NCBI GenBank assembly: GCA_965223265.1
Contig: OZ244999.1
Span: 5,600,001 to 5,664,000, forward strand
DNA length: 64,000 nt
Source: Planctomycetota bacterium
Lineage (GTDB): Bacteria > Planctomycetota > UBA8108 > SXIK01
Reading direction: 5' to 3'
The position numbers were made by a program, and so were the translations under genes. This document shows, piece after piece, positions 6,461 to 63,380 of this stretch; positions within the stretch are counted from its first letter, which is position 1, and every line of letters starts with the position of its first letter. The notes below the pieces were generated by a model. The model was not told the origin of the DNA, made no database searches, and saw only the letters and a list, made by a program, of their open reading frames with translations.

Positions 6461-6779
6461 CCGTCTCCGTCCGTCTGTCTCTGCCTCCGACTCTGCCTCC
6501 GACTCCGACTCTGTCTCTGCCTTCCATGAGAAGGCCAAAAAGTCAAGAGAGGCGAACGTGGTCGCCGCCCGAGCGCAGCGAGGTCAATCGTTCTCTGCGC
6601 CCAGCGAAGGTCAGTTGTAGGGTGGGAGGCCTGCGCGGCAGGGAGGGGCCCGCGAGCGGCAACGAGTCCGCACGCGAAGCGTCTCGTTTGGCGGCTGGGC
6701 AGCAAATGCCCTTGCTGCCTGGCCAAGAGCGTTTTGGTGCGCTGAGGTTTCCTGAAGTTCTCGAAAGAGTCTATGGCGC

Positions 6780-49525: not shown

Positions 49526-49562
49526 GCCGCAGGCCGTCACGGGCAGGGGCGGAGACAGACAG

Positions 49563-50266
49563 GCCCACGCCCACGTACACGTACCACGGACGGCACATGG
49601 CATGTGCCTGCTACTTTGGAAGACGCTCCCGCTTCGTTCGAACGCAGGAGATTGTGCCCGCCACGGAGGCAGCGGGCGCCACGACGTGATGCTCAGCGAG
49701 TCAGCCCGCCAAGAAGCGCCAGCAGTCGATCGAGCGTCTTGAGAGCGCTCGCGACGTCGTCGTGCTTCAGGTCGCCCCAGGACTGGGCGACGCGCAGCGC
49801 CGTCTCGACCTCGCGCGCGCTGCCGCGCGCTACGCGAAAGAGGTGCTGGCGATCTTTGCCGGCGCGTTCAGCTCCTTCTGAGAGATTGAGCGCCACCGAA
49901 GAAGCAGCGCGCCGAATCTGCCGGTGCAGGTCCGGATCGAGACGCCGAAGCCGCGCTAAAGGAACTCGCAAGTCGCCGATCAAACCGAGGCTGACGTCGA
50001 GAGCGATGAAACGCATAGAAGGCCTCCGAAGGAAGGTGAATCAAGAGCCCGCCGCATCCGGGCGGCGGTACCCCCCAACGCGGCGCGGAGGGACTGTCAA
50101 GAGCGCGAAGCGCCGAGCGCAGCGAGGGCACTCTTGCCAGTCCCGAGCACCGCGCACCATCGACCTAACCGCCGCCGTACGGTTACTCGTGTCATAGCTC
50201 GCACGTAACGCACACGGTCCGGACGGCACACAGGCGTGTGCCTGCTACTTTGGAAGACCCACACGC
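49563..50266 (-). mobile_element. REP-bounded four-helix-bundle cassette, copy 1 (704 bp)
   Basis: Inverted near-identical copy of 62428-63134. Direct repeats CGGACGGCACA..TGTGCCTGCTACTTTGGAAGAC at both ends (about 49587-49624 and 50220-50258). Confidence 0.75.
49693..50016 (-). CDS. Four helix bundle protein (23S IVS/Avd-like family)
   Basis: QIRRAASSVALNLSEG...FRVARGSAREVETAL family signature; GGAGG RBS. Confidence 0.9.
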   Translation of the reverse strand: MRFIALDVSLGLIGDLRVPLARLRRLDPDLHRQIRRAASSVALNLSEGAERAGKDRQHLFRVARGSAREVETALRVAQSWGDLKHDDVASALKTLDRLLALLGGLTR

Positions 50267-50963
50267 ACACGCACACGCACACGCACACGCACACGCACAC
50301 GCACACGCACACGCACACGCACACGCACACGCACACGCACACGCACACGCTCACGCACACGCACACGCACAAGACCGGACGGCACACGGGAGTGTGCCTG
50401 CTACTTTCAGCACACGCACACGCACACGCTCACGCACACACACAAGACCGGACGGCACACGGGAGTGTGCCTGCTACTTTCAGCACACGCACACGCTCAC
50501 GCACACGCAATCGCTCACGCAATCGCACACGCTCACGCACACGCACACGCACACGCACAAGACCGGACGGCACACGGGAGTGTGCCTGCTACTTTCAGCA
50601 CACGCACACGCTCACGCTCACGCTCACGCACACGCTCACGCTCACGCTCACGCTCACGCTCACACACAAGACCGGACGGCACACGGGAGTGTGCCTGCTA
50701 CTTTCAGCACACGCACACGCTCACGCACACGCACACGCTCACGCACAAGACCGGACGGCACACGGGAGTGTGCCTGCTACTTTCAGCACACGCACACGCT
50801 CACGCACACGCACAAGACCGGACGGCACACGGGAGTGTGCCTGCTACTTTCAGCACACGCACACGCACACGCTCACGCTCACGCTCACGCACAAGACCGG
50901 ACGGCACACGGGAGTGTGCCTGCTACTTTCAGCACACGCTCACGCAATCGCTCACGCAATCGC
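50260..50963 (+). repeat. Array of 7 identical 41-bp REP-like units separated by hexamer microsatellite spacers, preceded by a (CACACG)n tract
   Basis: CAAGACCGGACGGCACACGGGAGTGTGCCTGCTACTTTCAG starts at 50370, 50443, 50558, 50667, 50746, 50813 and 50892. Confidence 0.95.
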
Positions 50964-51211
50964 TGTTCTGTAGCGCTCAACCTCGGCGCAGGCCATGCTC
51001 TGGAAGCTGACGCGCTGACAGGAGCCTCGGCCCGCGGCACACTTCTTCGCGCGGCGGGTTCGGGGTGCAGAAGTCTGGTCCGCACACCTTACACCGGAGC
51101 ATCCTCCCGTGAAGCGAGTCCAATGCCCGAGCCGAACCACCCGACAGCGGCCCGTTTCGTGCTATACTGCTGCGTCACCTCCCTCCGCCTTTCCATCGAC
51201 AAGGAGCCCTC

Positions 51212-52192
51212 TTGCGCTCAACGCCACCGACGCACGAACTGGCGGGCGCGACCCTTGCGCAGCAGCTCGAGGCAGTTTGGCAGCTGGCCAAGCCGGCATG
51301 TTCCACTGCCGATGACCCGGACTCGGTGCGCAAGCTCCGCGTCGCAACGCGGCGTGCCCTCGTCAGTTGCCAGGCCTTCAGAGAGCTGTTGCCCGAGAGG
51401 CGCTTGAAGCGCATTCGCAAAGCGCTCAAACGATTGCGGCGCGCAGCCGGGGCGACGCGCGACCTCGACGTCCTCCTCGAGTTCATAGAAAAACGTGCCG
51501 CCAAGACAGACGACGCGCGTTTAGCCGATCTGTGCGCGGCGATCGCGGCGCGCCGCGAAGAGGCTCAACAGGCGCTAACGCAAGAGTACGAACGCCTCGT
51601 GCGCAAAGAGTTTTCGCGCCGGAGCGACCGACTCATCGATTCCATCGAATGGCGCGGCAACGGCGACGAACCAGATCTCGCCTCCATGGCACGCGCTCAC
51701 TTGGCTCCAGCAGCGGCAAGCTTTGTGACACAGGCGCGCGCCGACTTCACCTCCATCGACCAGCTCCACGAGCTGCGCCTACGAGGTAAGCGCCTGCGCT
51801 ACGCCGTCGAACTCTTCGGCGCCTCGCTGCACGAGGCGGCCGCTCAAAAGCTCGATCGACGCCTCAGGAAAACGCAGCGACGGTTAGGTCGGCTCAACGA
51901 TCACGCGACGTCAAGCGCCTTGCTGCGCAGCTGGACCGAAACCGACGATGCGGAAACGCTCGACTTGCTCGAAGCTCTCGCAGTGCGTGAGGAGAAACGG
52001 ACCGGGAAAGCCCAGCGCGACTTCCTCAGCTGGTGGAGCTCTGGACGCGTCGACAAGGTCGAGGCTCTTTGCGACACCCTGTTGAACGCTGTTGACGGCG
52101 CATCCGCGACGCGTGAACGGAGCGGTGGTGACGAGTCCCGGGACGAGGGGGCTGTCGACCCGCCGCGCGAACACGACCGCACGGCTGGCTGA
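51212..52192 (+). CDS. CHAD domain protein
   Basis: RKLRVATRR, GATRDLDV, LHELRLRGKRLRYAVE and LGRLND motifs. Confidence 0.9.
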   Translation: MRSTPPTHELAGATLAQQLEAVWQLAKPACSTADDPDSVRKLRVATRRALVSCQAFRELLPERRLKRIRKALKRLRRAAGATRDLDVLLEFIEKRAAKTDDARLADLCAAIAARREEAQQALTQEYERLVRKEFSRRSDRLIDSIEWRGNGDEPDLASMARAHLAPAAASFVTQARADFTSIDQLHELRLRGKRLRYAVELFGASLHEAAAQKLDRRLRKTQRRLGRLNDHATSSALLRSWTETDDAETLDLLEALAVREEKRTGKAQRDFLSWWSSGRVDKVEALCDTLLNAVDGASATRERSGGDESRDEGAVDPPREHDRTAG

Positions 52193-52210
52193 ACGGTCGC
52201 GCGCTTGGCT

Positions 52211-52440
52211 GCGTGGGCGTGGGCGTGCCAGCCTTCCGCCTCCACCTCCGTCTCTCGGCAGTTCCCGTTTGCGTTTGCGTTTGCGAGTGCGTTTTGCGAG
52301 TGCGAGTGCGAGTGCGTGAGAGTTTGCGAGCGCGTGAGCGTGGGCGTTTGCGTGGGAGAATGCGTGGGCGTTTGCGAGCGCGTGGGCGTGCCAGCACTCT
52401 GTATCTGATCCCGCCTCTGTATCCCTATCCGTATCTGCCT
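52211..52440 (+). repeat. Degenerate hexamer repeats (GCGTGG/GCGTTT/GCGAGT, then CTCTGT/ATCCGT type)
   Basis: Seen directly downstream of the CHAD stop. Confidence 0.85.
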
Positions 52441-52534
52441 TCCATGAGAAGACCAGAAAGTCAAGCGAGGCGACCGTGGTCGCCGCCCGAGCGCAGCGAG
52501 GTCAGTTGTAGGGTGGGCGGCCTGCCCGCGAGCG
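52441..52534 (-). mobile_element. Solo right-end fragment of the IS110/IS1111 element
   Basis: TCTGC-CT-TCCATGAGAAGACCA...GTGGTCGCCGCCCGAGCGCAGCGAGGTCAGTTGTAGGGTGGG...CCCGCGAGCG aligns with 6516-6658, with two internal deletions. Confidence 0.8.
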
Positions 52535-52554
52535 AAGCCGCTCGTTCCATGCTG

Positions 52555-53268
52555 TCAATCGTGACGGCGGCCAAGCAACCCGAGGCGATGAACCCAGTAG
52601 AGGAGCACCAGGAGAGATGAGATGAAGGCCGCAACGTACGTCAAGGCCGCAGCATTCAACACCTTACGAGCCCCTTGAAGTTCTTCATCCGTGGCATAGC
52701 GCCCCTCGGCGAGCGTCACGAGCGCCCGGCGACTTGCATCAAATTCGACCGGCAGCGTCACAAGCGTGAAGAGCGTCACCGTCCCAAAGAGCAATACGCC
52801 GATGATCGACACGATCCTACCCTGCGGAGTTGCAGCTCCGCCCAGTACAGCCGCCGCGATCAAAACAAAAATCGAGATGCCGCTGCCCAAGTTGGCCACT
52901 GGCACCCAGGCCGAACGGAACTTGAGGGGCGCGTAGCCTTGGGCGTGCTGAATCGCGTGCCCCACCTCATGTGCCGCGACGCCGAAGGCCGCCATGCTGG
53001 GGCTGCCGTAGACCGGCTCGCTGAGGCGCAGAGTCTTTGTCCGCGGATCGTAGTGATCGCTCAAGCTGCCGGCAATCGGTTCGACGGTGACGTCGTGAAT
53101 GTTGTTGTCGCGCAGAATATTCTTCGCGATCTGCGCGCCAGTCAAACCGGAGCGAGTTGCGATCTGGCTATACTTGGCAAAGGTGCCTTTCACCATGACA
53201 GAGGCCAGCAGGCTCAACCCGCCGCCAACGGCGATGACTACGAGGTAAAGGGGATCGAAAATCAGCAT
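52555..53268 (-). CDS. Neutral zinc metallopeptidase (YugP-like membrane family)
   Basis: LSDHYDP, AAHEVGHAIQH, TLPVEFDASRRA and AALTYVAA motifs. Confidence 0.92.
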   Translation of the reverse strand: MLIFDPLYLVVIAVGGGLSLLASVMVKGTFAKYSQIATRSGLTGAQIAKNILRDNNIHDVTVEPIAGSLSDHYDPRTKTLRLSEPVYGSPSMAAFGVAAHEVGHAIQHAQGYAPLKFRSAWVPVANLGSGISIFVLIAAAVLGGAATPQGRIVSIIGVLLFGTVTLFTLVTLPVEFDASRRALVTLAEGRYATDEELQGARKVLNAAALTYVAAFISSLLVLLYWVHRLGLLGRRHD

Positions 53269-53569
53269 TTTCCGTTTGGCTCAAGAGGTCTTCGGACCGG
53301 GGTACACTTTGAATCGCTTCTCCAGCGCGCGACTCACAAGTCATTGACGCTGAATCGAACGATTCTCCTAGCGTTATTCTGGGAATACTCCGGCGAATCG
53401 CAAGCGTTTTAGGGCTACTCGGAGTGAGCGTTCCGACGCGCGACGACCCCCTCCGACAGAGGAAGCAGCGCCGCTATGGTCAAGCGGACGGGACGCCCGC
53501 AGCGGCGTAGCGTGTCGCCTGCGCAGCCACTCAGCAATCTGGAGTAGGTGACGAAACGTAACCAGCGCC

Positions 53570-56206
53570 CTACGACCGCGATTCCTCCAGCCGTTTGATG
53601 CGCTTCTCGAGTTCTGCGCTGCGGCGGCGCAGCGCCTCCAACTCCTTCGCGTCTCCATCGCCATCAGCCTTGCGGATGCGGGTGATGGCAACATCGATCG
53701 CAGCGATCGGGTCCCGGAAAAGGTTCCCGGTCTCACGCTTCTTAAGTTGTTGGAGCTCTTCGATCGCACGTTCGTCGCCGAATCCTGCCAACGCCTCGAC
53801 TGCCGCGGCGCGCACGCGTGCCACTTCGTCGGACAGCGCCGCCACCAGCGACTCGTACGCCGCCTCGGTTCCATGCCCTAGGGTTGCAACTCCACTCAAG
53901 GCGGCGACCCGCGCGGGCACGGACGACCCAGTTTTGGCGAGCTGCGCCAAGGTTTCAACGCGCTGCTCTCGCACCTCGTCGCTTTCCGCGTCTCGCTCGG
54001 CGGCGAGCACGCCGATCGCTGCGACGCGGATGACGTCGCGATGGCTACTGCGCGACAGCGCGGCTTCGGCGTCAGCTTGCGCACCTGCCTTCAGGAGCTT
54101 CCCGAGTGCACTCACGGCGTCAGCGACGACGTAGTAAGACGCGTCGTCGTCGACAACGCGGCGAAGAAACGCCGCCACGTCGTCGCGCGAGCCATCGTCC
54201 TCGTCGCTCCCTATCGCGGCGTCGTCATCCTCGCCTAGCACAGCTCCAAGAGCCGTCACACTCGCGCGCCGCACCGCAGCCTTCTCCTCGCTGTCGAAAC
54301 GGGTCATGAGGGCGTGTGCGATGCTGTCACGGCTCACCTCAGCCTCCGCTAAGGCGCGAACAATGGCGCGGCGGACTCCCCAAAAGGCCTCACCTTGAAG
54401 AGCGCGCAGAAGCGCCGCCACGGCCTTCGTGTCGCGCTTGAAAGAAGCGAGTTCGCGCGCTGCTTCGAGTCGACCGAGCATGTCGTCGCAATGCTCGAGT
54501 TGGTAGACCAGCTCCTCCAGGCTCCTCTCGAAGTCGACCTCCTTGAGAATGTAGTCATCCGGGTCGAAACGCACCATCCTCGGTCGTTCAGCGACTGGAA
54601 ACGTGAAAGTCTCTTTGGCCTTGGCGACACGGACGCGGCGATCCACCGTGCCACTCGGCGTGACAATCCGCAGCACGACCGGCATATCGAAAAGCGGCGT
54701 CAGGTCGTCAACCTTTTGCACCTGCTCCACCCTCACTTGCAGCGTCCCTTCGTCTCGATCCCAGCTCTTGCGGATGCGGTAGTGCGGGTGCCCGCCTCCG
54801 TGCATCCATTGGTCAAAGAACCATCGCAGGCTCTGACCCGTCGCCTCCTCGAGAGCGATGCGTACATCGGCGGTCTCGACGCTGCGGAACTCATTGCGCT
54901 TCAGGAAATGGCTCAAGCCTCGATAGAACTCGTCCTCGCCCAGAACATAGCGCAGCATATGAAGAATCCGCGCCCCTTTGGGGTAAGCGTGGCGGTCGAA
55001 GAGATCCGATGGGCTTCGGTAGCGCCGCGACACAAGGCGACGTCGATACTCGCCGCGATCTTCGCGCAGGTAGCGCTCAGCCTGATCGAGGCGATCGTGA
55101 AGGCCTTCGTCCCGGCCGAGATGGTGCTCACGCCAAACATTGGCGAAGAAAGTCGCGAAACTCTCGTTGATCCAGATTTGGCTCCAATCCTTACAGGTGA
55201 CCAGGTTGCCGAACCATTGATGGATCAACTCATGCGCTACGAGATCCATGCTGGTGACGTCGAGCGCAGCGCGTTCGTCGTGCAGCGTTCGCTCGGTCAG
55301 CGTTGTCACCGTCGTGTTCTCCATGCCGCCGAAGGGAAACTCGTGCACACACACCTGGTCGTATCGTGCCCATGGATAGGGGTACTGCAGTTTCTGCTCG
55401 AAGAAATCGAGCATCTGGCGGGTGAGTCCAAAGCTGCGCTCGGCGTGCGCCGCGTAGTGCGGAGCAACATAGCCTCCGATCTCGATTCCGTCGCCAGAAT
55501 CACGCCAATGGGCGAACTTGCCGACGACGACGCTGATCAGATAAGTCGTGTGTGGGCGATCCTGCAGCCAGTGAAAAAGTCGCATCCCGTCGCGCACGGA
55601 CGCCGACTTCACGAGTCGACCATTGGAGATCACCTGAAGATCCTCGTCTGCCGGTACTGAAACCAGCATCTCGGTGGTCAGTTTGTCACTCGGATGGTCA
55701 AAACACGGAATCCAGTGCCGTGCCTCTTCGGCCTCACCTTGCGTCCAAATCTGCTTCGGACGATCGGGATACATCGCGCTCGGTGAAAAGAAGTGAAGTC
55801 CACGGCGTGGCTGAGCTTTGTAGACGATCTTGAGCGAGATCTCTTCGCCCGCGCGCAGCTCGCGGTCAAGCTCCACCTCAATCGATTCGGCAAGCGTCTC
55901 GACACGCAGCCGTTTCGAATCGTCGAGGAAAACCGAGCCTACATCGATGCCAATGCCGTCGAATCGAACGCGACGGACACCGCCTCTGAGGCATCGCAAA
56001 CGATGCACAACGACGCCGTCGACGCTTCTTTCCTGCCAGTTGAACTCACACTCGAGCCGCAAGTGGAGAGCATCGAAGTCGCGCGATGGCGGTTCCTTTC
56101 GGGGACCTTCAAACTTGGCGGATCTCTTGACCTCCGCCTCGCTGGCGTCCACCGCAGCAACTGCCGTCAGCAGGATGAAAAGAAACTGAATCGTGCGTCG
56201 TGCCAT
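53570..56206 (-). CDS. M1 family aminopeptidase with C-terminal HEAT repeats
   Basis: Signal peptide, GGMEN, HELIHQWFG-x-E and YPKGA motifs. Confidence 0.92.
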   Translation of the reverse strand: MARRTIQFLFILLTAVAAVDASEAEVKRSAKFEGPRKEPPSRDFDALHLRLECEFNWQERSVDGVVVHRLRCLRGGVRRVRFDGIGIDVGSVFLDDSKRLRVETLAESIEVELDRELRAGEEISLKIVYKAQPRRGLHFFSPSAMYPDRPKQIWTQGEAEEARHWIPCFDHPSDKLTTEMLVSVPADEDLQVISNGRLVKSASVRDGMRLFHWLQDRPHTTYLISVVVGKFAHWRDSGDGIEIGGYVAPHYAAHAERSFGLTRQMLDFFEQKLQYPYPWARYDQVCVHEFPFGGMENTTVTTLTERTLHDERAALDVTSMDLVAHELIHQWFGNLVTCKDWSQIWINESFATFFANVWREHHLGRDEGLHDRLDQAERYLREDRGEYRRRLVSRRYRSPSDLFDRHAYPKGARILHMLRYVLGEDEFYRGLSHFLKRNEFRSVETADVRIALEEATGQSLRWFFDQWMHGGGHPHYRIRKSWDRDEGTLQVRVEQVQKVDDLTPLFDMPVVLRIVTPSGTVDRRVRVAKAKETFTFPVAERPRMVRFDPDDYILKEVDFERSLEELVYQLEHCDDMLGRLEAARELASFKRDTKAVAALLRALQGEAFWGVRRAIVRALAEAEVSRDSIAHALMTRFDSEEKAAVRRASVTALGAVLGEDDDAAIGSDEDDGSRDDVAAFLRRVVDDDASYYVVADAVSALGKLLKAGAQADAEAALSRSSHRDVIRVAAIGVLAAERDAESDEVREQRVETLAQLAKTGSSVPARVAALSGVATLGHGTEAAYESLVAALSDEVARVRAAAVEALAGFGDERAIEELQQLKKRETGNLFRDPIAAIDVAITRIRKADGDGDAKELEALRRRSAELEKRIKRLEESRS

Positions 56207-56334
56207 AGCGTTCCTTTTGAACTCTCTCACGGACTTGTCGCACCCTTCAGGGTGCACTCCCCCTCTCGGCTCTTCTGCCGCCGATCCACGTGCTCAACTT
56301 AGTTCGCTCGGCACGTTCGTCCTCACACCGTACT

Positions 56335-57828
56335 CTACCGAGGATTCTCCGAGAATCCCTCCTTCGGCAACGACGCAGTCAGCCGTTCGCGCACGTCGTT
56401 CAGAAGCCATTCTGCCTCTCGCTTGCTGCGTATTGAACCACCGGCCCGCGTGCGCCGCCGACCACCCCAGTGAACGACGAGGTCATAGTACAGCTCGCGC
56501 CCGCTTTGCATGCCGACATCGAGTGTTAAGTCGTCAATCTCATCGGCGCGAATGTGGCGAACAGTTCCCAAACCAAGCAGTCGATACTTGATCCTTACGC
56601 CGCTTTCGTCGCACTGCAGGCGTGATGTGCCGAGCCACAGATCAGCGGCGACGAAACTTAACAGCAGACCGAAGAGTCCAAAAACGATCGGGAAGAGAAT
56701 CGGTGCCTCAAGGTAAACCTGCAGAGCGACGGCACCCCACCAAAGGCACGTGAAGAACGTGAGCCCGGTGGCGGCTCCGGGGTTGCGACCCGGCGGGAAA
56801 AAATACTCACGGCAGCCCGGGCGAAGCGAGTCGATCACGACCGTCATGCCAACGGGCGCGCCGTCGATCGCTCCGCCATGGTGCACGTCAAAGGCGAGCT
56901 CATACGGCTTCGCCCATTCTCCGAGCGCGTGCTGCGGCACGCCAAGATCGGAACGTCGAAGCACGTCAGCTTCCGCGGCAGCGAAGACCGGGACTTCGAA
57001 AGAGGTGGCGTAATCGAGGCCGAAGACGCGAGCAGACACCTCGAGTAGCCATACGATGCGGTCATCGGGATCGCCGAGCGACGTCGGCTTGGCATCATCT
57101 TGCAGGGCAAACGAAACAGGAACGCACACGCCGTCGAATTGATGTGCGCTCCGAAGCGGCTCGACCATCTTCTCCTCCTGCCACAAGACTCGCTCGCGGA
57201 CGTGTCCACGATCGGAGCTCCCCCGACAACGAGTCCGCCGCAGGCAGCTCAACCGCAGCACGAACCCGCCACTCGGCTCGATCGACCGACGAATGTGTAC
57301 GAGTCCCTCAAGCCAACTGCCCGGCTGACTCGGCGTCTCAAGCAAGTGAAGTACTGAGTCTCCGAACCGTCGCAGCTGCAGCGTCAACCGTACCGCCCAG
57401 ATCAAAAGTCCGCAGCCGACGAGAGGAAAAATCAGTCCAAGCAAGGCGAGATAGTTCTCTCTGTCAATCACCTCGCGAGGCACCAAGAAAAGCAAGGGCG
57501 ACGAGACAAGGTTCCAGAAGGCTGCGAAAAACCAAGCCAAGCGCCTCTGTGCTCGCAGAGTCGAGTGGACAAACCCTCGCTGCCAGTCGGCGCGTGAATT
57601 CCACGGCACAGTCGTCGACGCGGCATCGATCGACTCCAGCCGTGATCTTCTCCGCAGTCGAAAACTCGGCAGAATAGGTGTCACCGGCGTACGGACCTCG
57701 CGCAATAGAGAGTACCAGGCGAATCGGCGCCGGATTACGGGAACCGAGAACGGGCCGCCATCCATTGCCCCACATCGGTTCTCTATCGACCATTCAAGCA
57801 GCGCCGCTGAACAAGACCTCGACGGCAA
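56335..57828 (-). CDS. Hypothetical membrane protein
   Basis: Two pairs of TM helices (FAAFWNL...FPLVG; FTCLWWG...FGLFG) around a soluble domain. Start is uncertain. Confidence 0.65.
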   Translation of the reverse strand: MPSRSCSAALLEWSIENRCGAMDGGPFSVPVIRRRFAWYSLLREVRTPVTPILPSFRLRRRSRLESIDAASTTVPWNSRADWQRGFVHSTLRAQRRLAWFFAAFWNLVSSPLLFLVPREVIDRENYLALLGLIFPLVGCGLLIWAVRLTLQLRRFGDSVLHLLETPSQPGSWLEGLVHIRRSIEPSGGFVLRLSCLRRTRCRGSSDRGHVRERVLWQEEKMVEPLRSAHQFDGVCVPVSFALQDDAKPTSLGDPDDRIVWLLEVSARVFGLDYATSFEVPVFAAAEADVLRRSDLGVPQHALGEWAKPYELAFDVHHGGAIDGAPVGMTVVIDSLRPGCREYFFPPGRNPGAATGLTFFTCLWWGAVALQVYLEAPILFPIVFGLFGLLLSFVAADLWLGTSRLQCDESGVRIKYRLLGLGTVRHIRADEIDDLTLDVGMQSGRELYYDLVVHWGGRRRTRAGGSIRSKREAEWLLNDVRERLTASLPKEGFSENPR

Positions 57829-57873
57829 CCGAGGACCCGACAGATCCGCATCGTCGCCGCCATGAACTGCTTG

Positions 57874-58587
57874 TCATTCAATGGTGTCGATCAGCCGCGG
57901 TTTGAACGCGAGGGAATCGCAGCTGGCAAGAACGTACTCAACACCGCGCTGCTCACCCTGAAAGACCCGGTCCCACTCGTTCGGCGTGTGCAAATGGCCG
58001 AAGATGCAGTGACTGCAACCAGCTTCCTCGACGATGCGCGTGAACAGGCTTTCAGAGCGACCCATCGGAAACGGTGGATAGTGAAACATCGCAAGGGGAG
58101 GTCGATCACCGTCGTAAATCTCGCGCAAGTGCTCGATGGAGAGTAGCAGCTCGTGCCGTTCTCGCACCAATCGCGTCTCAGTCGACTCAAGCGGCTCAGT
58201 GTCGCGACTACAAAAATCGGCGCCGCGCACACCGATGATGGGGACATCGTCGACAACGACGGCTCGCTTCTTAATGGCGTAGACACCCTCCGGCAGGATC
58301 GTCCGCAGTTTCCCGTGCGAACGCGGCCACCAGTAGTCGTGGTTGCCTTTGATGAGAACCTTGCGGCCCGGCAAAGTCGCGAGCCATTCGAAATCCTTGA
58401 CCACCTCGTTGAGTCGCATCGCCCAAGAAAAGTCACCGGGCAAGAGCACGATGTCGTTCTCATCGACTCGCGAGCGCCACGAGTCTTCGACTTTCAAGTG
58501 GTGATCTTTCCAGTGCTCGCCAAACACATCCATCCACTTGCCGGTCGAAAACCCGAGATGAAGATCGGCAATCGCCCAGACTCTCAT
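57874..58587 (-). CDS. Metallophosphoesterase
   Basis: ADLH, PGDFSW, GNHDYW and GHLH motifs. Confidence 0.92.
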   Translation of the reverse strand: MRVWAIADLHLGFSTGKWMDVFGEHWKDHHLKVEDSWRSRVDENDIVLLPGDFSWAMRLNEVVKDFEWLATLPGRKVLIKGNHDYWWPRSHGKLRTILPEGVYAIKKRAVVVDDVPIIGVRGADFCSRDTEPLESTETRLVRERHELLLSIEHLREIYDGDRPPLAMFHYPPFPMGRSESLFTRIVEEAGCSHCIFGHLHTPNEWDRVFQGEQRGVEYVLASCDSLAFKPRLIDTIE

Positions 58588-58778
58588 TCCGCCTCTCCGT
58601 CCCTGTCTCCACTGCTCGACGAAGCTGCGCGCCGCATGGTGTGACAACCTGACGACGCGAGACAGTGTTCGGCAGCGACCCTTCCCAACTGGAGCCCATA
58701 CTCTATACCATCCGTTGACGACGACTGGTAGACTTCTCTTCGATCGTGAATCACCTGCAAGAGGAGTAGAAGAGCCGC

Positions 58779-59594
58779 ATGCCAAACTCGCCCTCGAAGT
58801 TCGTTGAAAGCGTGAGAAGTGGGCCACTTCTTCTTGGCGTGATTCACTTACCGCCGCTGCCAGGAAGCCCGCGCTACGATGGCGCAGGCCTCAACGCGAT
58901 CGTCGAACGCGCGTGCTCGGATGCGTCAGTTCTCGCCGCATCTGACTTCGACGGTTATGTCGTGGAGAATTTCGGCGATGCACCGTTCTTCCCAGAGCGA
59001 GTTCCACGCCACGTGCTGACGGTGATGACGCGAGTCATCACCTCGCTACCGCGCGATGGAGTGCTCGTCGGTGTCAACGTTCTCCGCAACGACGCCGCCG
59101 GAGCACTCGCGATCGCGGCGGCCTGCGACCTCGACTTTGCGCGCGTCAACGTCCACATCGGCGCAGCCGTCACCGATCAAGGAGTGATCCAGGGACGCGC
59201 TGCAGAGACGATCCGGCTGCGGGAGCAGATCGCGCCGGGAGTCGCGATCCTCGCCGACGTCGACGTCAAACACGCGACGCCGCTCGGATCGCGTTACGAC
59301 ATTGCAGCTGCAGCTAAAGAAACGGTTGCTCGTGGACTTGCAGACGCAGTCGTCGTCACCGGCAAAGCGACTGGCAGCCAAACGTCACTCGGCGATCTGG
59401 AGATCGTCGCTAGCAGCGTGCCGGACACGCCCGTCCTCGCAGGCAGCGGCGTCACGCTTGACACTCTCCCCCAAGTGCTGACGAGTGCCGACGGCGTAAT
59501 CGTTGGCACCGCACTGAAGCATGACTGCGCTGTAGAAGCTGCCATTGACCCTGACCGCGCGCGCGAGTTCGCTCAGATCGCGCACGAGCTCTAA
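58779..59594 (+). CDS. BtpA/SgcQ family protein
   Basis: GVIHLPPLPGSP, ENFGDAPF, GVNVLRND and ADVDVKH motifs. Confidence 0.92.
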   Translation: MPNSPSKFVESVRSGPLLLGVIHLPPLPGSPRYDGAGLNAIVERACSDASVLAASDFDGYVVENFGDAPFFPERVPRHVLTVMTRVITSLPRDGVLVGVNVLRNDAAGALAIAAACDLDFARVNVHIGAAVTDQGVIQGRAAETIRLREQIAPGVAILADVDVKHATPLGSRYDIAAAAKETVARGLADAVVVTGKATGSQTSLGDLEIVASSVPDTPVLAGSGVTLDTLPQVLTSADGVIVGTALKHDCAVEAAIDPDRAREFAQIAHEL

Positions 59595-59621
59595 CCGATG
59601 TCATGCGCCTGAGGCTGTTCA

Positions 59622-60989
59622 ATGGCATCTACCTCGCCACAACACCTCCGTAGCCACGCGACGGCGATCTTCGCAGCCGCGGTAAGCGCCGCCGATCCGG
59701 AGAACGGAGTGAGTGGTGCAATCGCGAAGATGCGGACGCAGAGTGGCTCGCTACTGATCGCTGGAAGCGAAATCAAAACCCCGGGTGCCTTACGCCTCGT
59801 CGCCGTGGGCAAAGCAGCATGCACAATGGCGGCAGCAGCGAAGAGGACGCTCGACGCAGAGCCGAACTCACGCGATCTCCCGCTCACGCCGGGAATCGCC
59901 ATCGTCAACCCAGAAAACGCCCGCGACGTTGAATCATTCGACGTTCTCACCGCGGGGCACCCCCTTCCCGATCCAGCCGGCGTCGCTGCGGCATGCCAGC
60001 TGGAGCGTTACCTCGCGAACCTCTCAACAGAAGACGCGGTGATTCTCCTGCTCTCCGGCGGCGGCTCCGCGCTCCTGCCGGCGCCGTCCTCAGGAGTGAC
60101 GCTCGACGACAAGAGACGCGTCACCGAAGCGCTCCTTGTCGGCGGCGCTGACATTCATGCCCTCAACGTAGTGCGCAAGCACCTCTCCCGCCTAAAGGGA
60201 GGTGGCCTGGCACGCTGCGTGTTTCCAGCTCCACTCGAAGTCATCATCGTCTCGGATGTTTTCGACGACGATCTCAGCACGATCGCGAGCGGTCCAGCGG
60301 TGGCCGACCCGACGACCTTCGCTGACGCCGTCGAAATCTTGCAGCGATTCGGTGCTTGGCAGCAGGCACCCACAGCGGTCCGTACCCGCTTCGAGGCGGG
60401 CCTGCGAGGCGAGGTCGCTGAAACACCCAAAGAAGGCGATAGGATCTTTACACATGTACGCCATCGCATCGTTGCGAGCAACCGGCTCAGCGTCGAAGCA
60501 GCGCGGCAGGCGGCGACTGCGGCGGGATACGAAACCGAGGTGATGGAAGCACCACTGACCGGCGAAGCGCGGCGAGTAGCCAAGCTCTTCGTCACCAAAC
60601 TGCATGCTGACGCTCAAGGTCACTCATCACGAAAGCGAGCCTTCATCGCGGGAGGAGAAACCACGGTAACGGTGCGCGGGAGCGGGCGCGGTGGACGCAA
60701 TCAGGAGCTGGCTTTAGCGGTCGCGGTCGGAACCGCAGGCAAGATAGCGCCTTCAGCGTGGACATTCTTGAGCTCTGGAACCGACGGCAAAGACGGCCCA
60801 ACAGACGCCGCTGGAGGGATCGTCGACGGGGGCACAACCGCGCGCGGCGAAGCCGCGGGATTGAACGCGGAGGCGTCTTTGGCTGAGAATGACTCGCACA
60901 CGTTTCTCGATGCCTGTGGCGACCTCGTCCGAACTGGTGCGACTGGCACCAACGTCGCGGACATTCAAGTCCTACTCACCGAGACGTGA
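59622..60989 (+). CDS. Glycerate kinase type 2 (MOFRL family)
   Basis: LLSGGGSAL, IASGP, GGETTV, GGRNQE, TDGKDG and TGTNVAD motifs. Confidence 0.92.
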   Translation: MASTSPQHLRSHATAIFAAAVSAADPENGVSGAIAKMRTQSGSLLIAGSEIKTPGALRLVAVGKAACTMAAAAKRTLDAEPNSRDLPLTPGIAIVNPENARDVESFDVLTAGHPLPDPAGVAAACQLERYLANLSTEDAVILLLSGGGSALLPAPSSGVTLDDKRRVTEALLVGGADIHALNVVRKHLSRLKGGGLARCVFPAPLEVIIVSDVFDDDLSTIASGPAVADPTTFADAVEILQRFGAWQQAPTAVRTRFEAGLRGEVAETPKEGDRIFTHVRHRIVASNRLSVEAARQAATAAGYETEVMEAPLTGEARRVAKLFVTKLHADAQGHSSRKRAFIAGGETTVTVRGSGRGGRNQELALAVAVGTAGKIAPSAWTFLSSGTDGKDGPTDAAGGIVDGGTTARGEAAGLNAEASLAENDSHTFLDACGDLVRTGATGTNVADIQVLLTET

Positions 60990-61011
60990 AACAAGGAGCC
61001 AGCTGAAAAAC

Positions 61012-61273
61012 ATCCGTCTCCGTCGCTCTCTGACTCTGTCATCCGAATCCGCCTCTGTCATCCGAATCTGACTCTGTCGTCCGAATCCGTCTCTGCCATC
61101 CGAATCTGACTCTGTCTCTGACATCTGTCTCTGTCATCCGAATCTGACTCCGCCTCTGACATCTGTCTCGGTCATCCGAATCTGACTCCGTCTCTGACAT
61201 CTGTCTCTGTCATCCGAATCCGAATCTGATTCTGTCTCTGTCTCTGTCTCTGTCATCCGAATCCGCCTCTGCC
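61012..61273 (+). repeat. Mixed 6/7-mer repeat tract with about 19-bp and 38-bp higher-order periods
   Basis: Recurring CTCTGT-CATCCGA-ATCYGN units between the glycerate kinase and PfkB genes. Confidence 0.85.
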
Positions 61274-61310
61274 TTTTGTCCCCGCACCTGTCCCATCAAA
61301 GGAGACCGGA

Positions 61311-62339
61311 GTGACGAAAAAGCGAATCGGCATCTGCTGCGCCGGAAATTGGATCATAGATCACGTCAAAACGGTTTCGTGCTGGCCGGACCAAGACACG
61401 CTCTCCTACATTCTCTCCGAGGAGATCGGGACCGGCGGCTCACCGTTCAACGTACTGGTGGATCTGGCTCGCTTCCAAGTCGACGTACCGCTGGTCGGGA
61501 TCGGTGTCGTCGGTAGCGATGCCGACGGTGAATTCATCCGTTCCACGTGCAAGTCTCTCGGGATTGACACGCGATGGCTGCAGCCCCTCGATGGAGTCCC
61601 TACAGCCTACACGGACGTCATGACCGTCGAGGACACGGGTCGCCGCACGTTCTTTCATCACCGCGGCGCCAACGACCTTCTCGAGCCGTCTCACTTTCCT
61701 CTCGATCAGCTCTCCTGCCGCATCCTCAACCTCGGATATTTGCTGCTGCTCGGCGCGCTCGATTGCGCGGACGAGGAATTCGGTACGCGGTCCGCCCGCA
61801 TCCTTTCGCGTGCGCGTGAGCTCGGCATCGAAACGTGCATCGATGTCGTCAGCGAAAACTCGGATCGTTTCGCGACCGTCGTCAAACCGGCACTTCGACA
61901 CGTCGACTACTGCATCATCAACGAGCTGGAAGCAGGTCGAACGACGGGCATCACGATCCGCCGCGGCGAGGACCTCGACGTCGCCGCCATGCACCGAGCT
62001 GCGGATGCCCTGCTCGACTGCGGCGTCGGCAAACTTGCGGTTATTCACACCCCCGAAGTCAGCCTCGGGGTGACCCGTGCGGGCAGCCGGCACGCGCAGG
62101 CGACTCATCTTTTGCCGCCGGGATACGTCAAAGGCACCGCAGGCGCGGGCGACGCGTTCTTGGCGGGCATGCTCGTGGCGCTCCATGACGACTGGGGCCT
62201 GGAGGAGGCTTTGCGCTTCGCCAACGCCGCCGCGGCAAGTTGCCTGCGCCATCCGACGACCACCGGTGGCGTCGGAACCGCTGACGAGATCAAAGAAATC
62301 ATGCGAACGCTGCCTCTGCGTCCGCTTCCAGTCCCTTAA
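61311..62339 (+). CDS. PfkB family carbohydrate kinase
   Basis: GGAG RBS + GTG start; GGSPFN, NELEA and GTAGAGDAF motifs. Confidence 0.92.
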   Translation: MTKKRIGICCAGNWIIDHVKTVSCWPDQDTLSYILSEEIGTGGSPFNVLVDLARFQVDVPLVGIGVVGSDADGEFIRSTCKSLGIDTRWLQPLDGVPTAYTDVMTVEDTGRRTFFHHRGANDLLEPSHFPLDQLSCRILNLGYLLLLGALDCADEEFGTRSARILSRARELGIETCIDVVSENSDRFATVVKPALRHVDYCIINELEAGRTTGITIRRGEDLDVAAMHRAADALLDCGVGKLAVIHTPEVSLGVTRAGSRHAQATHLLPPGYVKGTAGAGDAFLAGMLVALHDDWGLEEALRFANAAAASCLRHPTTTGGVGTADEIKEIMRTLPLRPLPVP

Positions 62340-62351
62340 CCGACCGAGCGG

Positions 62352-62432
62352 GTTTGCGCTGGCGTTTGCGTGGGCGTGGGCGTTTGCGTGGGCGTTTGCG
62401 TGGGCGTGGGCGTGGGCGTGGGCGTGGGCGTG
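62352..62432 (+). repeat. Hexamer microsatellite (GCGTGG/GCGTTT)
   Basis: Seen directly, abutting cassette copy 2. Confidence 0.9.
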
Positions 62433-63134
62433 TGGGTCTTCCAAAGTAGCAGGCACACGCCTGTGTGCCGTCCGGACCGTGTGCGTGTACGTGCGAGCTA
62501 TGACACGAGTAACCGTACGGCGGCGGTTAGGTCGATGGTGCGCGGTGCTCGGGACTGGCAAGAGTGCCCTCGCTGCGCTCGGCGCTTCGCGCTCTTGACA
62601 GTCCCTCCGCGCCGCGTTGGGGGGGGTACCGCCGCCCGGATGCGGCGGGCTCTTGATTCACCTTCCTTCGGAGGCCTTCTATGCGTTTCATCGCTCTCGA
62701 CGTCAGTCTCGGTTTGATCGGCGACTTGCGAGTTCCTTTAGCGCGGCTTCGGCGTCTCGATCCGGACCTGCACCGGCAGATTCGGCGCGCTGCTTCTTCG
62801 GTGGCGCTCAATCTCTCAGAAGGAGCTGAACGCGCCGGCAAAGATCGCCAGCACCTCTTTCGCGTCGCGCGCGGCAGCGCGCGCGAGGTCGAGACGGCGC
62901 TGCGCGTCGCCCAGTCCTGGGGCGATCTGAAGAGCGAAGACGTCGCGAGCGCTCTCAAGACGCTCGATCGACTGCTGGCGCTTCTTGGCGGGCTGACTCG
63001 CTGAGCATCACGTCGTGGCGCCCGCTGCCTCCGTGGCGGGCACAATCTCCTGCGTTCGAACGAAGCGGGAGCGTCTTCCAAAGTAGCAGGCACATGCCAT
63101 GTGCCGTCCGTGGTACGTGTACGTGGGCGTGGGC
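62428..63134 (+). mobile_element. REP-bounded four-helix-bundle cassette, copy 2 (707 bp)
   Basis: GTCTTCCAAAGTAGCAGGCACA..TGTGCCGTCCG at about 62436-62474 and 63073-63110. Matches copy 1 apart from about 6 substitutions and 3 nt of indels. Confidence 0.75.
62681..63004 (+). CDS. Four helix bundle protein (23S IVS/Avd-like family)
   Basis: 105/107 aa identical to 49693-50016. Confidence 0.9.
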   Translation: MRFIALDVSLGLIGDLRVPLARLRRLDPDLHRQIRRAASSVALNLSEGAERAGKDRQHLFRVARGSAREVETALRVAQSWGDLKSEDVASALKTLDRLLALLGGLTR

Positions 63135-63380
63135 GTCAGTACTACTCTGTCTCTGTCTACGTCTCCGTATCTGCGTCTGAATCCGAGCGGCAAGCTTCGA
63201 GTCGTGACGACAGATCCTCGAGTCAACGGGATCCAGCTGACGAGCGGTGCCAAAGTGTGGTCCGGCTCGCCCCTCCCGCACCCCTTCCGTCTCACTGACA
63301 TGGCCAGTCGCCGTTTCGCTTCGGGGCGGAGGCACGCTATGATGGAGCGCCTGGTTCGAGGAGTTGGCAGGAGATTGTTC

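Follow-up and report, generated by a model that had tools for sequence, protein, structure and literature searches.

The window, the whole 64,000-nt stretch analysed here (positions 5,600,001 to 5,664,000 of contig OZ244999.1), carries two inverted copies of a small unit at 49563-50266 and 62428-63134, each with one 107-aa four-helix-bundle gene (Table 1). Global alignment of the 704- and 707-nt copies reveals 6 substitutions and 3 gap columns, such that 9 of 707 aligned columns differ (98.7% identity), in agreement with the ~99% identical inverted pair described in an earlier note made from the sequence alone. The inverted arms comprise 514 nt at 99% (49563-50076/62621-63134) and 137 nt at 100% (50071-50207/62488-62624), and across 784 bp the pair shows 97.1% identity. 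Four of the six substitutions are packed into a 13-nt cluster (62926-62938), which also contains both residue differences between the encoded proteins P0001 and P0002. The sharp shared boundaries previously reported hold on the gene's 3' side and not on the 5' side, where the copies continue into related hexamers with a further inverted match of 145 nt at 87%. Each copy does start within ~90 nt of a stop codon, at 38 nt for copy 1 (49525 to 49563) and 89 nt for copy 2 (62339 to 62428), and the adjoining hexamer unit differs between copies, (CACACG) x70.7 versus (GCGTGG) x10.8. The motif GTCTTCCAAAGTAGCAGGCACA-loop-TGTGCCGTCCG recurs in direct orientation at both ends of both copies, on the minus strand in copy 1, and all four positions were located. 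An Rfam scan of the window returned one tRNA and nothing else.

Table 1 Features of the two window copies (window coordinates).
Copy	Feature	Position	Strand
1	Short hexamer tract past the 3' REP, CGTGGG/CGTGTA type in gene orientation, common to both copies	49563..49586	-
1	3' REP, loop variant ATGCCAT, GTAG tag on the gene's sense strand	49587..49624	-
1	3' hairpin past the stop codon, GCGCCCGC...GCGGGC	49656..49679	-
1	107-aa four-helix-bundle gene, type B (P0001)	49693..50016	-
1	Structured leader (covarying hairpin 50075-50161; apical conserved block 50096-50136)	50017..50218	-
1	Terminator-like hairpin of leader	50049-50068	-
1	5' REP, loop variant ACGCCTGT	50219..50258	-
1	Hexamer array CACACG/CTCACG interleaved with seven main-type REPs in the orientation of the cassette's own (starts 50375, 50448, 50563, 50672, 50751, 50818, 50897)	50260..50965	-
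1	(CACACG) x70.7	50260-50668	
2	Upstream hexamer array GCGTGG/GCGTTT ((GCGTGG) x10.8 at 62368-62432)	62368..62435	+
2	5' REP	62436..62475	+
2	Structured leader (covarying hairpin 62534-62620; apical block 62559-62599)	62476..62680	+
2	Terminator-like hairpin of leader, then GGAGG and ATG	62629-62648	+
2	107-aa four-helix-bundle gene, type B (P0002)	62681..63004	+
2	3' hairpin	63018..63041	+
2	3' REP (63073-63110) and shared 24-nt hexamer tract	63073..63134	+

Near identity within repeat-rich DNA is compatible with mis-assembly, and one hypothesis is that one of the two copies is an assembly artefact. However, the genome is a single 9.18-Mb contig, the copies differ at the 9 columns given above as well as in their unique flanks, and the unique flanks of copy 2 are matched without difference by short-read contigs from two samples, up to 62390 and again from 63105. 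Three more copies elsewhere in the genome, at 91-96% identity, likewise make an artefact very improbable.

A family of 36 gene cassettes

The unit is not confined to two copies: PF05635 matches the genome 39 times, and 36 of these matches are intact ORFs of 107 aa (19 of type B and 17 of type A). The window copies are the youngest pair of this 36-member family of self-contained gene cassettes. A cassette consists of a ~170-nt leader with an 88-nt hairpin, the 107-aa gene and a 3' hairpin, the last present in 19 of 19 aligned B copies. With a dN/dS of 0.13-0.14 at dS ~0.5 in both types, the genes are, judged by this ratio, held functional by purifying selection. Orientation is biased relative to replication: 16 of 17 type A cassettes occupy the leading strand and 15 of 19 type B cassettes the lagging one. 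Both window copies belong to sub-lineage B1 (five copies), which has a private REP variant on each side, whereas the four copies of sub-lineage B2 (93.5-96.7% identical) lack internal REPs and have hexamer arrays at both ends, and are about as young. In the closest outgroup copy to B1, at 8820862 (83-84% identical), REPs are missing upstream and downstream alike, so REP gain preceded the B1 expansion.

The window-copy protein scores above cut-off for both PF05635 (53.1 bits, cut-off 33.8) and TIGR02436 (53.8 bits, cut-off 24). Its AlphaFold model is all helical (pLDDT 95.3) and best matches 2gsc (TM 0.80), 2rld (0.84) and the DGR Avd structures 8ub7_E (0.84) and 4dwl (0.79), which bears out the Avd-like four-helix bundle proposed earlier. 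The 88-nt leader hairpin matches no Rfam family and covaries, with changes on both sides in 14 of 31 pairs; 88.5% of cells pair, a share that drops to 36-47% if the partner is shifted by 1-3 columns, and the covariation score was reached by 0 of 500 shuffles. The U33-G60 wobble never varies, which favours the sense strand as the one that folds. Within the mRNA of its own cassette, the hairpin would serve as a regulatory RNA. Two mosaic hairpins with mismatched arms are found, at 8371625 and 8304112. As DNA, the leader hairpin also serves a 2,670-bp large-serine-recombinase element as its attachment site. This element encodes a protein of 702 aa that combines Resolvase, Recombinase and zinc-ribbon domains; the six copies of the element (99.9-100% identical) are inserted at one fixed position of the hairpin in six different B cassettes. 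Because the target leader is multicopy, this element has many attachment sites within one genome.

REPs and polar hexamer arrays around the cassettes

The end motifs are genuine REPs, as had been suggested: 306 copies with a covarying stem and GTAG tag occur genome-wide as singletons, inverted doublets and arrays of a 26-28-nt GC-rich hairpin with 5' GTAG, and a strict pattern occurs 187 times against 0 for a reversed control, which excludes chance. A genome search for a RAYT gene flanked by the same REP found one RAYT-like Y1/HUH gene 1.4 Mb away, set among the same REPs and hexamer spacers, including the REP-plus-hexamer unit of the copy 1 array. It carries HVH and the tyrosine motif YIRDNP, and scores 56.1 bits for NF047646, below the 80-bit curated NCBIfam cut-off, versus 18.9 for IS200 transposase; PF01797 gives 26.4 (cut-off 23). 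Every PF01797 and PF00078 match in the genome falls outside 5600001-5664000, so the window indeed lacks RAYT and RT genes. The genome-wide PF00078 search found no DGR reverse transcriptase; the four RT genes are group II intron proteins and none adjoins a cassette.

Cassettes sit at fixed positions and in fixed orientation within polar hexamer arrays. Of the 36 cassettes, 31 have hexamer-period repeats no more than 300 bp away, versus 3.8% of genome positions, and 13 of the 19 type-B genes have a REP upstream, versus a 2.2% background, which confirms the anticipated association of gene, REP and hexamers. Type B lies between [CGTNNG]n upstream (13/19) and [NNTCYG]n downstream (16/19), and type A between [CRGANN]n arrays (upstream 15/17, downstream 12/17); the reverse readings occur at cassettes 0-2 times, and an inverted layout in 0 of 36. 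For 99 of 104 REPs in hexamer arrays the orientation matches that of the hexamers, and 65 of 146 hexamer arrays have a REP within 60 bp. That a genuine REP/RAYT system lives in [CGTNNG]n arrays accounts for the REPs, in gene orientation, upstream of most B cassettes. Most arrays carry no cassette (385 hexamer loci against 36 cassettes), and 29 of the 44 composite arrays, with no cassette nearby, are candidate targets for new copies.

The earlier note took the REPs to be the ends of the unit. The core common to all copies is sharply delimited and leaves the REPs outside, and no more than 5 of 19 B cassettes, and 0 of 17 A cassettes, have a REP on each side. In 5 of 5 B1 copies the REPs occupy a constant place, both 5' of the leader (allowing for the recombinase insertion) and 3' of the gene, one 3' REP being truncated; both bounding variants, among them the 3' variant with the ATGCCAT loop, are confined to the young B1 loci. 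Eight same-orientation REP pairs lie 250-1000 bp apart, of which four enclose an intact four-helix-bundle gene and one a remnant.

How might new copies arise?

We tentatively favour homology-driven copying between dispersed REP/hexamer arrays as the origin of new copies, the window pair included. Ectopic gene conversion could copy cassettes among arrays, or a circle could be excised via recombination of the flanking direct arrays and re-enter another array in Campbell fashion; neither route would need precise cleavage at REP ends, and REPs would ride as passengers whenever they fell inside the copied tract. The earlier note instead proposed that the REP-bounded B1 cassette is a non-autonomous unit cut and pasted as single-stranded DNA in trans by the single RAYT. 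That REPs lie outside the core, rarely on both sides, and that ends vary within hexamers favours homology over such precise transposition. Among the 10 B1 pairs, shared sequence extends 123-485 nt upstream of ATG and 83-196 nt past the stop, so the five young REP-bounded copies do not have the constant ends once expected, and this variation is unlike the outcome of precise HUH transposition, although similarity among hexamers can extend BLAST matches or obscure where they end, which makes variable ends weaker evidence than in unique DNA. Copying by homology is also consistent with the multiplication of B2 without REPs, with the residence of REPs in arrays, and with recombination traces in the two mosaic hairpins and the 13-nt substitution cluster; the copies at 5649693 and 6172892 share two additional array REPs. 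However, no recombination intermediate was seen, nor an empty site among relatives that all lie outside the genus, and two GTAG-tagged hairpins on the same strand provide the geometry that a single-strand HUH enzyme of the IS200/IS605 mechanism needs. B1, alone among the B sub-lineages in being flanked by REPs on both sides, also has the most similar copies, and its private REP variants fit functional ends as well as passengers. A RAYT-like gene among the same REPs, the constant REP places in B1, the gain of REPs before its expansion, and the fact that nothing but the cassette recurs as cargo between direct REP pairs all speak for transposition by the RAYT, as does the replication-strand bias, which single-strand transposition is expected to produce, judging by work on IS608. 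Against it stand the variable ends, the multiplication of 14 of 19 B and 17 of 17 A cassettes without REPs on both sides, and the score of the RAYT-like gene below its curated cut-off; short-read contigs held no circle junction, the only REP-to-REP joints being cross-matches resting on 20-22 nt. We know of no demonstration of RAYT-driven movement of a cargo gene, and we consider this model unlikely. The consulted part of the REP/RAYT account in PMC3733652 describes no cargo.

Homology alone leaves unexplained why only the four-helix-bundle family spreads among arrays, and why tandem repeats adjoin the gene at a relative in another family. Of 41 genomes searched for the gene, six contain it, with 37, 13, 4, 3, 2 and 1 matches; the remaining 35, all three same-family genomes among them, have none. 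A Planctomycetota MAG has five loci whose upstream sequence is 400 nt or longer; each of them shows the same leader hairpin together with tandem repeats of 6-7 nt immediately upstream and lacks REPs. An Anaeromyxobacteraceae MAG relative has short tandem repeats upstream of the gene. An alternative hypothesis is a dedicated spreading route tied to the protein, the leader hairpin and short tandem repeats, with REPs and the serine-recombinase element as later lodgers and the cassette as the same kind of unit as the ORF-bearing 23S rRNA inserts. These loci, patchy copy number among relatives, purifying selection on 36 paralogues and the predicted fold of Avd, a nucleic-acid-binding partner protein, are consistent with it. 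Yet the cassette encodes no enzyme, the only reverse transcriptases are the non-adjacent group II intron copies, the arrays are direct and not inverted as in rRNA inserts, hexamer loci far outnumber cassettes, and the hairpin turned up in just two lineages, with matches in 3 of the 41 relatives (one of them weak) and in none of 150 further genomes from the phylum. We regard this joint reading as rather doubtful, and copying by homology remains our preferred one.

The setting resembles REP/RAYT systems (REPtrons, REPINs, BIMEs) in its GC-rich GTAG hairpin, hundreds of copies and one RAYT-like gene among the same REPs, and PMC3733652 reports both GTAG REPs and RAYT genes from Planctomycetes. It differs in that 104 of 306 REPs lie in hexamer microsatellites at fixed relative orientation, many in long direct arrays with hexamer spacers, and in that a protein-coding cassette recurs between or beside REPs; the parts of the REP/RAYT literature consulted describe neither oriented hexamer arrays nor such a cassette. 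IS200/IS605 elements and their non-autonomous derivatives share same-strand hairpins near both ends, orientation bias relative to replication and an HUH/Y1 enzyme supplied in trans; here, by contrast, ends vary between copies, no transposase is encoded and the short-read contigs hold no circle junction. The recombinase element has the domain set of large-serine-recombinase integrative elements and identical junctions at one sequence position in six copies, but its target is the multicopy structured leader of a small-gene family. The protein shares its four-helix-bundle fold with Avd, the DGR accessory protein (TM 0.79-0.84 at 9-11% identity), and PF05635 is described as Avd-like (PMC10053308), whereas the DGR reverse transcriptase is absent from this genome and from beside every cassette. 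The 23S rRNA ORF-bearing intervening sequences (S23p; Coxiella, Leptospira) are likewise small inserts with a PF05635 gene of ~110 aa and flanking structure, and PMC4990558 regards that insert as a selfish element of unknown mobility. The cassette, unlike these, lies outside rRNA, the tRNA being the window's only Rfam match, has inverted flanks around the gene in none of 36 instances, and is maintained in 36 copies under purifying selection, whereas the Coxiella ORF is reported there as decaying.

The window pair, its REPs and a predicted RAYT

The two cassette copies in the window are inverted relative to each other, and a repeat comparison within the window resolves one arm of 514 nt (99% identity) and another of 137 nt (100%). 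Aligned end to end (704 versus 707 nt), the copies differ by six substitutions and three gap columns, with four of the six substitutions crowded into 13 nt at 62926-62938. Each copy holds one 107-aa open reading frame (ORF), whose product scores 53.1 bits against PF05635 (curated cut-off 33.8) and 53.8 bits against TIGR02436 (cut-off 24). The predicted structure is a helical bundle (pLDDT 95.3) with best fold matches to 2gsc (TM 0.80), 2rld (0.84) and 8ub7_E, which is Avd (0.84); across comparisons with this DGR protein the model reaches TM 0.79-0.84 at 9-11% identity. The RxxxSxxxNxxE motif, given as conserved in PF05635/TIGR02436 proteins (PMC3936711), is present in the copy 1 protein as R35, S39, N43 and E46; in an alignment of eight sequences every row retains R35, S39 and E47, and 7/8 rows retain N43. 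The alignment, the ORFs and the profile and fold matches bear out the earlier note in its description of a near-identical inverted pair with a 107-aa gene between direct GTAG hairpins, and in its assignment of the protein to TIGR02436-like, Avd-related four-helix bundles (4HB). Its claim of sharp shared boundaries holds for the 3' side but not for the 5' side, where the copies run on into related but different hexamer arrays.

An assembly artefact, which the earlier note had raised as a possibility, is ruled out by the distinct flanks of the two copies and by short-read contigs of two samples that match the copy 2 flanks exactly. Contigs of sequencing runs X1 and X3 break at repeats, and their joints (62461 to 63064 and 62461 to 63080) rest on 20-22 nt that are REP cross-matches; runs X5 and X6 match the hexamer tract only. 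Short-read contigs also break in a tandem array (TCTGACTCTGTCATCCGAA; periods of 19 and 38 nt) at window 61029-61254, between a gene ending at 60989 and a PfkB gene.

The motif GTCTTCCAAAGTAGCAGGCACA-loop-TGTGCCGTCCG flanks the gene on both sides, on the gene's sense strand. Throughout the genome, a single contig of 9.18 Mb at 60.8% G+C in which the window occupies G000:C1:5600001-5664000, the repeat GTAGCAGGCAC-loop-GTGCCGTCC occurs in 168 copies by a strict and 306 by a relaxed pattern, with 0 occurrences of the reversed control. Copies stand singly, as inverted doublets or in direct arrays of up to 19, and stem variants are compensatory (CAC/GTG, CAT/ATG, CTC/GAG, CGC/GCG). The GTAG tag 5' of the stem, the hundreds of copies and the compensatory stems confirm that the end motifs are REPs. 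A RAYT gene, encoding the Y1/HUH tyrosine transposase of REPs, is typically single-copy and flanked by the same REPs, and one Y1_Tnp gene so flanked was indeed found outside the window. Its 215-aa product scores 26.4 bits against PF01797 (cut-off 23), and its best NCBIfam match, NF047646 'REP-associated tyrosine transposase', reaches 56.1 bits, below the model cut-off of 80; a search of the PDB by sequence gave no meaningful match. Three REPs lie upstream of this gene and an array of eight REPs with CACACG-type spacers lies downstream, its unit being also that of the array at window 50375-50926, and two other PF01797 matches in the genome are below cut-off and have no REPs nearby. The genome is therefore predicted to carry a RAYT belonging to these REPs. 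GTAG REPs and RAYT genes have already been recorded for Planctomycetes (PMC3733652).

Coordinates of cassettes, REPs and associated elements (plain numbers, window positions; G000:C1, positions in the whole genome)
Feature	Position	Strand or remark
Cassette copy 1	49563-50266	minus
Flanking REPs, copy 1	50219-50258 and 49587-49624	gene sense strand
Cassette copy 2	62428-63134	plus
Flanking REPs, copy 2	62436-62475 and 63073-63110	gene sense strand
RAYT-like gene, 215 aa	G000:C1:4206500-4207147 (excerpt L031:1120-1767)	HVH and YIRDNP motifs
2,670-bp element, copy 1	G000:C1:2581250-2583919 (excerpt L107:751-3420)	outside the window
2,670-bp element, five further copies within	G000:C1:6779080-6782286, 7186418-7189629, 8597364-8600574, 8979102-8982309, 8835385-8838123	
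Broken or partial cassettes	G000:C1:385581-385985, 906661-906837, 1008448-1008875, 5573655-5573742, 8664805-8664893	truncated genes or orphan leader hairpins
Second repeat family, window	6569-6583, 52487-52501 (minus)	
Second repeat family, elsewhere	G000:C1:403709-404119, 5870099, 9028020	403709-404119, three tandem 198-bp units
Group II intron copies	G000:C1:1895554, 3424405, 3516453, 5913461 (excerpts L099-L102)	RVT_1 and GIIM; RF02003

The cassette family and its structured leader

A BLAST search of the genome with the 704-bp unit returned five copies with 92-100% identity; a further ~15, at 78-83%, cover query positions 79/94 to 624 only and thus lack the REP ends. Profile search yielded 39 PF05635 matches, 36 of them intact 107-aa genes, and the window pair is consequently part of a much larger set of paralogues: 19 genes of type B, the window copies among them, and 17 of type A, with ~51% amino-acid identity between the types. 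Alignments that include the flanks define a sharply bounded core composed of a leader of ~170 nt, the coding sequence and a 3' hairpin, and the REPs lie outside this core. Both types are under purifying selection, as judged from a median dN/dS of 0.13-0.14 at a mean dS of ~0.5. Truncated genes and orphan leader hairpins also occur, and therefore the family also decays. Convergent B/A gene pairs are present at seven loci (e.g. G000:C1:7450527-7451661, in excerpt L011, and 8820275-8821185), spaced by 264-488 bp of TCTGNN-type repeats, and several of these pairs are homologous as whole 1.8-kb units. The distribution over 41 genomes of the class is patchy: six have 37, 13, 4, 3, 2 and 1 matches, and 35 have none; the three same-family genomes, which are among these 35, have no cassette, no REP and no CNNACG array.

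Types A and B have one leader architecture in common, centred on a hairpin of ~88 nt whose apical part (TCAAGGGTGCCCTCGCTGCGCTCGGCGCTTCGCGCCCTTGA) is nearly invariant, with the conserved loop CCUCGCUGCGCUCGG, and whose lower stem varies between copies yet stays paired. Across 27 distinct sequences 88.5% of cells are paired, versus 36-47% after a shift of the 3' partner by 1-3 columns; 14/31 pairs have changed on both sides, and the observed covariation score was reached by 0/500 shuffles. RNAalifold agrees with this hairpin. The folding energy of the whole leader is not unusual (z = -1.38); it is the covariation that supports a structure. One invariant U-G pair and eight G-U cells at another pair favour folding of the sense strand. 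Directly before the ribosome-binding site a second hairpin (62629-62648) scores as terminator-like, and its 5' arm, read from the alignment, could alternatively pair with the segment GGCGGCGG at the leader start, which suggests that the leader may act by attenuation. A sigma-70 promoter scan of 62250-63250 gave 0 sites. Rfam returned one tRNA and nothing else at gathering threshold over the window, and over 62300-63250 gave matches at chance level alone (E 0.24 or worse). Searching with a covariance model of the hairpin gave matches in this genome, 14 in G007 (a relative of the same order but another family), one weak match in a second relative, G021, and none in the other 38 relatives; a search of 150 more genomes of the phylum, under stricter filters and at 29 scored candidates per genome, gave 0 matches at E <= 1e-5. 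In both G007 and a Planctomycetota MAG the hairpin likewise precedes a 4HB gene. The leader is thus a conserved structured element without a counterpart in Rfam.

A second repeat family of ~7 copies has the 15-mer CCTCGCTGCGCTCGG in common with the leader-hairpin loop, followed by a small hairpin and CTTGAC. Its copies are not beside a 4HB gene, with the exception of the tandem copies upstream of A404589.

Five B genes have more than 1.5 kb of upstream homology in common because of an inserted 2,670-bp element. Its 702-aa product, a large serine recombinase, carries Resolvase (PF00239, 71 bits), Recombinase (PF07508, 51 bits) and zinc-ribbon (PF13408, 26.4 bits) domains and gave no match to PADLOC profiles; with its site-specific junctions, the insert is a large serine recombinase element. 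All six copies interrupt the leader hairpin at a single position in its left arm (...TG / TGAAGTCGAGCA ... GGCTACCCGTGG / TCAAGGG...). The copies are 99.9-100% identical in all 15 pairs, whereas among their carriers identity is 74.5-100% in the 5' leader stubs and 72.5-96.1% in the remaining cassette (15 pairs), with flanks overall at 72-100%. Near-identical elements in divergent hosts therefore mean that the element inserted independently and site-specifically in six different B cassettes, one of which later suffered a partial deletion, and six insertions at one position make the hairpin an attachment site at the DNA level. In both window copies the hairpin is uninterrupted by this element.

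Polar arrays and the spread of copies

Tandem Repeats Finder resolves 385 merged loci in the genome whose period is a multiple of six (6, 12, 18 and so on), and such a locus lies within 300 bp of 31/36 cassettes as compared with 3.8% of genome positions, a baseline that covers the whole genome rather than intergenic DNA and therefore overstates the enrichment to some degree. Read along the gene, B cassettes carry [CGTNNG]n upstream (13/19) and [NNTCYG]n downstream (16/19), and A cassettes carry [CRGANN]n upstream (15/17) and downstream (12/17), often with [CNNACG]n after it; the reverse readings were counted 0-2 times. REPs follow the same polarity. A CNNACG-type run lies within 60 bp of 104/306 REPs, concordant in orientation in 99 of the 104, and 65/146 arrays of at least four units have a REP within 60 bp. 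Near B genes 36 REPs are co-oriented with the gene and two are opposite, because the REPs share the oriented hexamer arrays. A REP lies within 600 nt upstream (at 209-360 nt) of 13/19 B genes against an expectation of 2.2%, a count that allows for the 2,670-bp insertion separating five genes from their true leader start; any REP is nearby at 1/17 A genes. The enrichment of homologous genes beside REP and hexamer tracts that the earlier note had anticipated is therefore observed.

The arrays also occur without cassettes. Of 44 composite [CRGANN]n-[CNNACG]n arrays, 29 have no cassette near them. In the window, (TGCGTT) x17.8 at 1194-1347 and (GCGTGG) x8.5 at 1345-1435 abut an inverted REP doublet with no cassette, an example of an 'empty' REP/hexamer site, and 52210-52440 is a cassette-free composite array, [GCGTGG/GCGTTT/GCGAGT]n - GCCAGCA - [CTCTGT/ATCTGA]n, with the junction type found downstream of cassettes of the B1 sub-lineage. 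Relative to a replication axis drawn from GC skew (minimum at 7.95 Mb, near the origin; maximum at 3.52 Mb, near the terminus), A genes are on the leading strand in 16/17 cases and B genes on the lagging strand in 15/19, window copy 1 being one of the four exceptions, and arrays are biased ~2:1 to the leading strand (CNNACG 97/146, CAGANN 147/209). Across the 41 genomes searched, CNNACG arrays and the REP are almost exclusive to this one. In the Planctomycetota MAG, other repeats of 6-7 nt lie directly upstream of the leader in 5/5 loci with enough flank, and short repeats are likewise upstream in a relative from an Anaeromyxobacteraceae MAG.

How do new cassette copies arise? One hypothesis, that of the earlier note, is that the cassette is a non-autonomous unit with REPs as its ends, mobilised in trans by the RAYT. 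The five youngest REP-bounded copies, the B1 genes at 5649693, 5662681, 4592886, 6172892 and 2584047, agree with this hypothesis in that both bounding hairpins lie on one strand (5/5, with one 3' REP truncated). In all five the 5' and 3' REPs are variants private to this sub-lineage. Two further points agree with the hypothesis: the nearest outgroup, 8820862, lacks REPs, which places REP gain before the B1 expansion, and the cassette is the sole recurrent cargo between direct REP pairs, occupying four of eight pairs 250-1000 bp apart intact and one as a remnant. However, the shared ends of B1 copies are not constant: by pair, common sequence begins 123-485 nt before the ATG and continues for 83-196 nt after the stop, into microsatellite flanks with soft boundaries, and one pair shares two further array REPs. 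REPs flank 5/19 B and 0/17 A cassettes on both sides, so that REPs are not the ends of the conserved unit, and we consider mobilisation by the RAYT unlikely.

An alternative hypothesis, which we favour, is that new copies would arise by homology-driven copying between dispersed arrays. It is favoured by the varying B1 ends, by the young B2 sub-lineage (four copies, 93.5-96.7% identical), which has no internal REP and carries hexamer arrays at both ends, and by sequence exchange between cassette copies, seen in the mismatched mosaic arms of two leader hairpins and in the 13-nt patch that differs in the window pair. Such copying may proceed by gene conversion, or by excision of a circle followed by Campbell-type re-entry into an array, which would also yield the direct array duplication around A cassettes. 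Homology alone leaves unexplained why only the 4HB gene spreads.

Wider reading and relation to known systems

The interpretation in the earlier note is thus supported in part, and the analysis goes beyond it in a 36-copy family with a covarying leader, in polar arrays common to cassettes and REPs, and in a recombinase element that targets the leader hairpin. Taken jointly, the Avd-like 4HB protein, the leader hairpin and the polar tandem repeats might form one undescribed self-propagating module, in which the protein would bind the hairpin or a repeat strand and so promote cassette copying into arrays or array growth; rRNA intervening sequences would be a special case, and here the REP/RAYT system would have specialised on the arrays and the serine-recombinase element on the hairpin. 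We regard this joint reading as speculative and unlikely. To our knowledge, PF05635 ranks among the most common bacterial families that have no function assigned outside DGRs, and 36 selected copies with one structured leader in one genome offer a direct way to test the binding partner of the protein. A distant relative shows the same association of gene and short tandem repeats, which could bear on the origin of bacterial microsatellite arrays, and the recombinase element, whose attachment site is a leader hairpin present in many copies, gives a clear and testable example of specialisation by one selfish element on a second.

Several known identities were rejected. The genome has four PF00078 matches, all of which are group II intron proteins, and no reverse transcriptase (RT) gene lies beside any of the 39 PF05635 loci, which excludes a DGR; two of the four introns lie 0.6-1.3 kb from REPs. 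PADLOC profiles gave no match for the A or B protein, arguing against a known defence gene, and an ORF-bearing 23S rRNA intervening sequence with an enclosing stem is contradicted by the lack of rRNA in the window and by an inverted array layout in 0/36 cassettes. A full-text literature search found no link of PF05635 genes to REPs, to short tandem (hexamer/heptamer) repeats or to the leader motif. PF05635 genes are known from 23S rRNA intervening sequences (PMC4990558), their proteins are Avd-like DGR partners (PMC10053308), and such genes are seen wedged between cas genes (PMC3936711).

In comparison with REP/RAYT systems, both the GTAG-tagged GC-rich palindrome and one Y1/HUH RAYT-like gene flanked by the same REPs are present, and REPs set in oriented hexamer arrays and flanking a gene extend the known habits of these systems. 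An IS200/IS605-like transposon with REP ends is approached in B1 only, where hairpins lie on the same strand at both ends, but identical precise ends are lacking. A 23S rRNA intervening sequence sits in an rRNA helix with complementary flanks, whereas the cassettes here have direct arrays. The finding thus extends two known kinds, REP/RAYT systems and PF05635 inserts of the intervening-sequence type.
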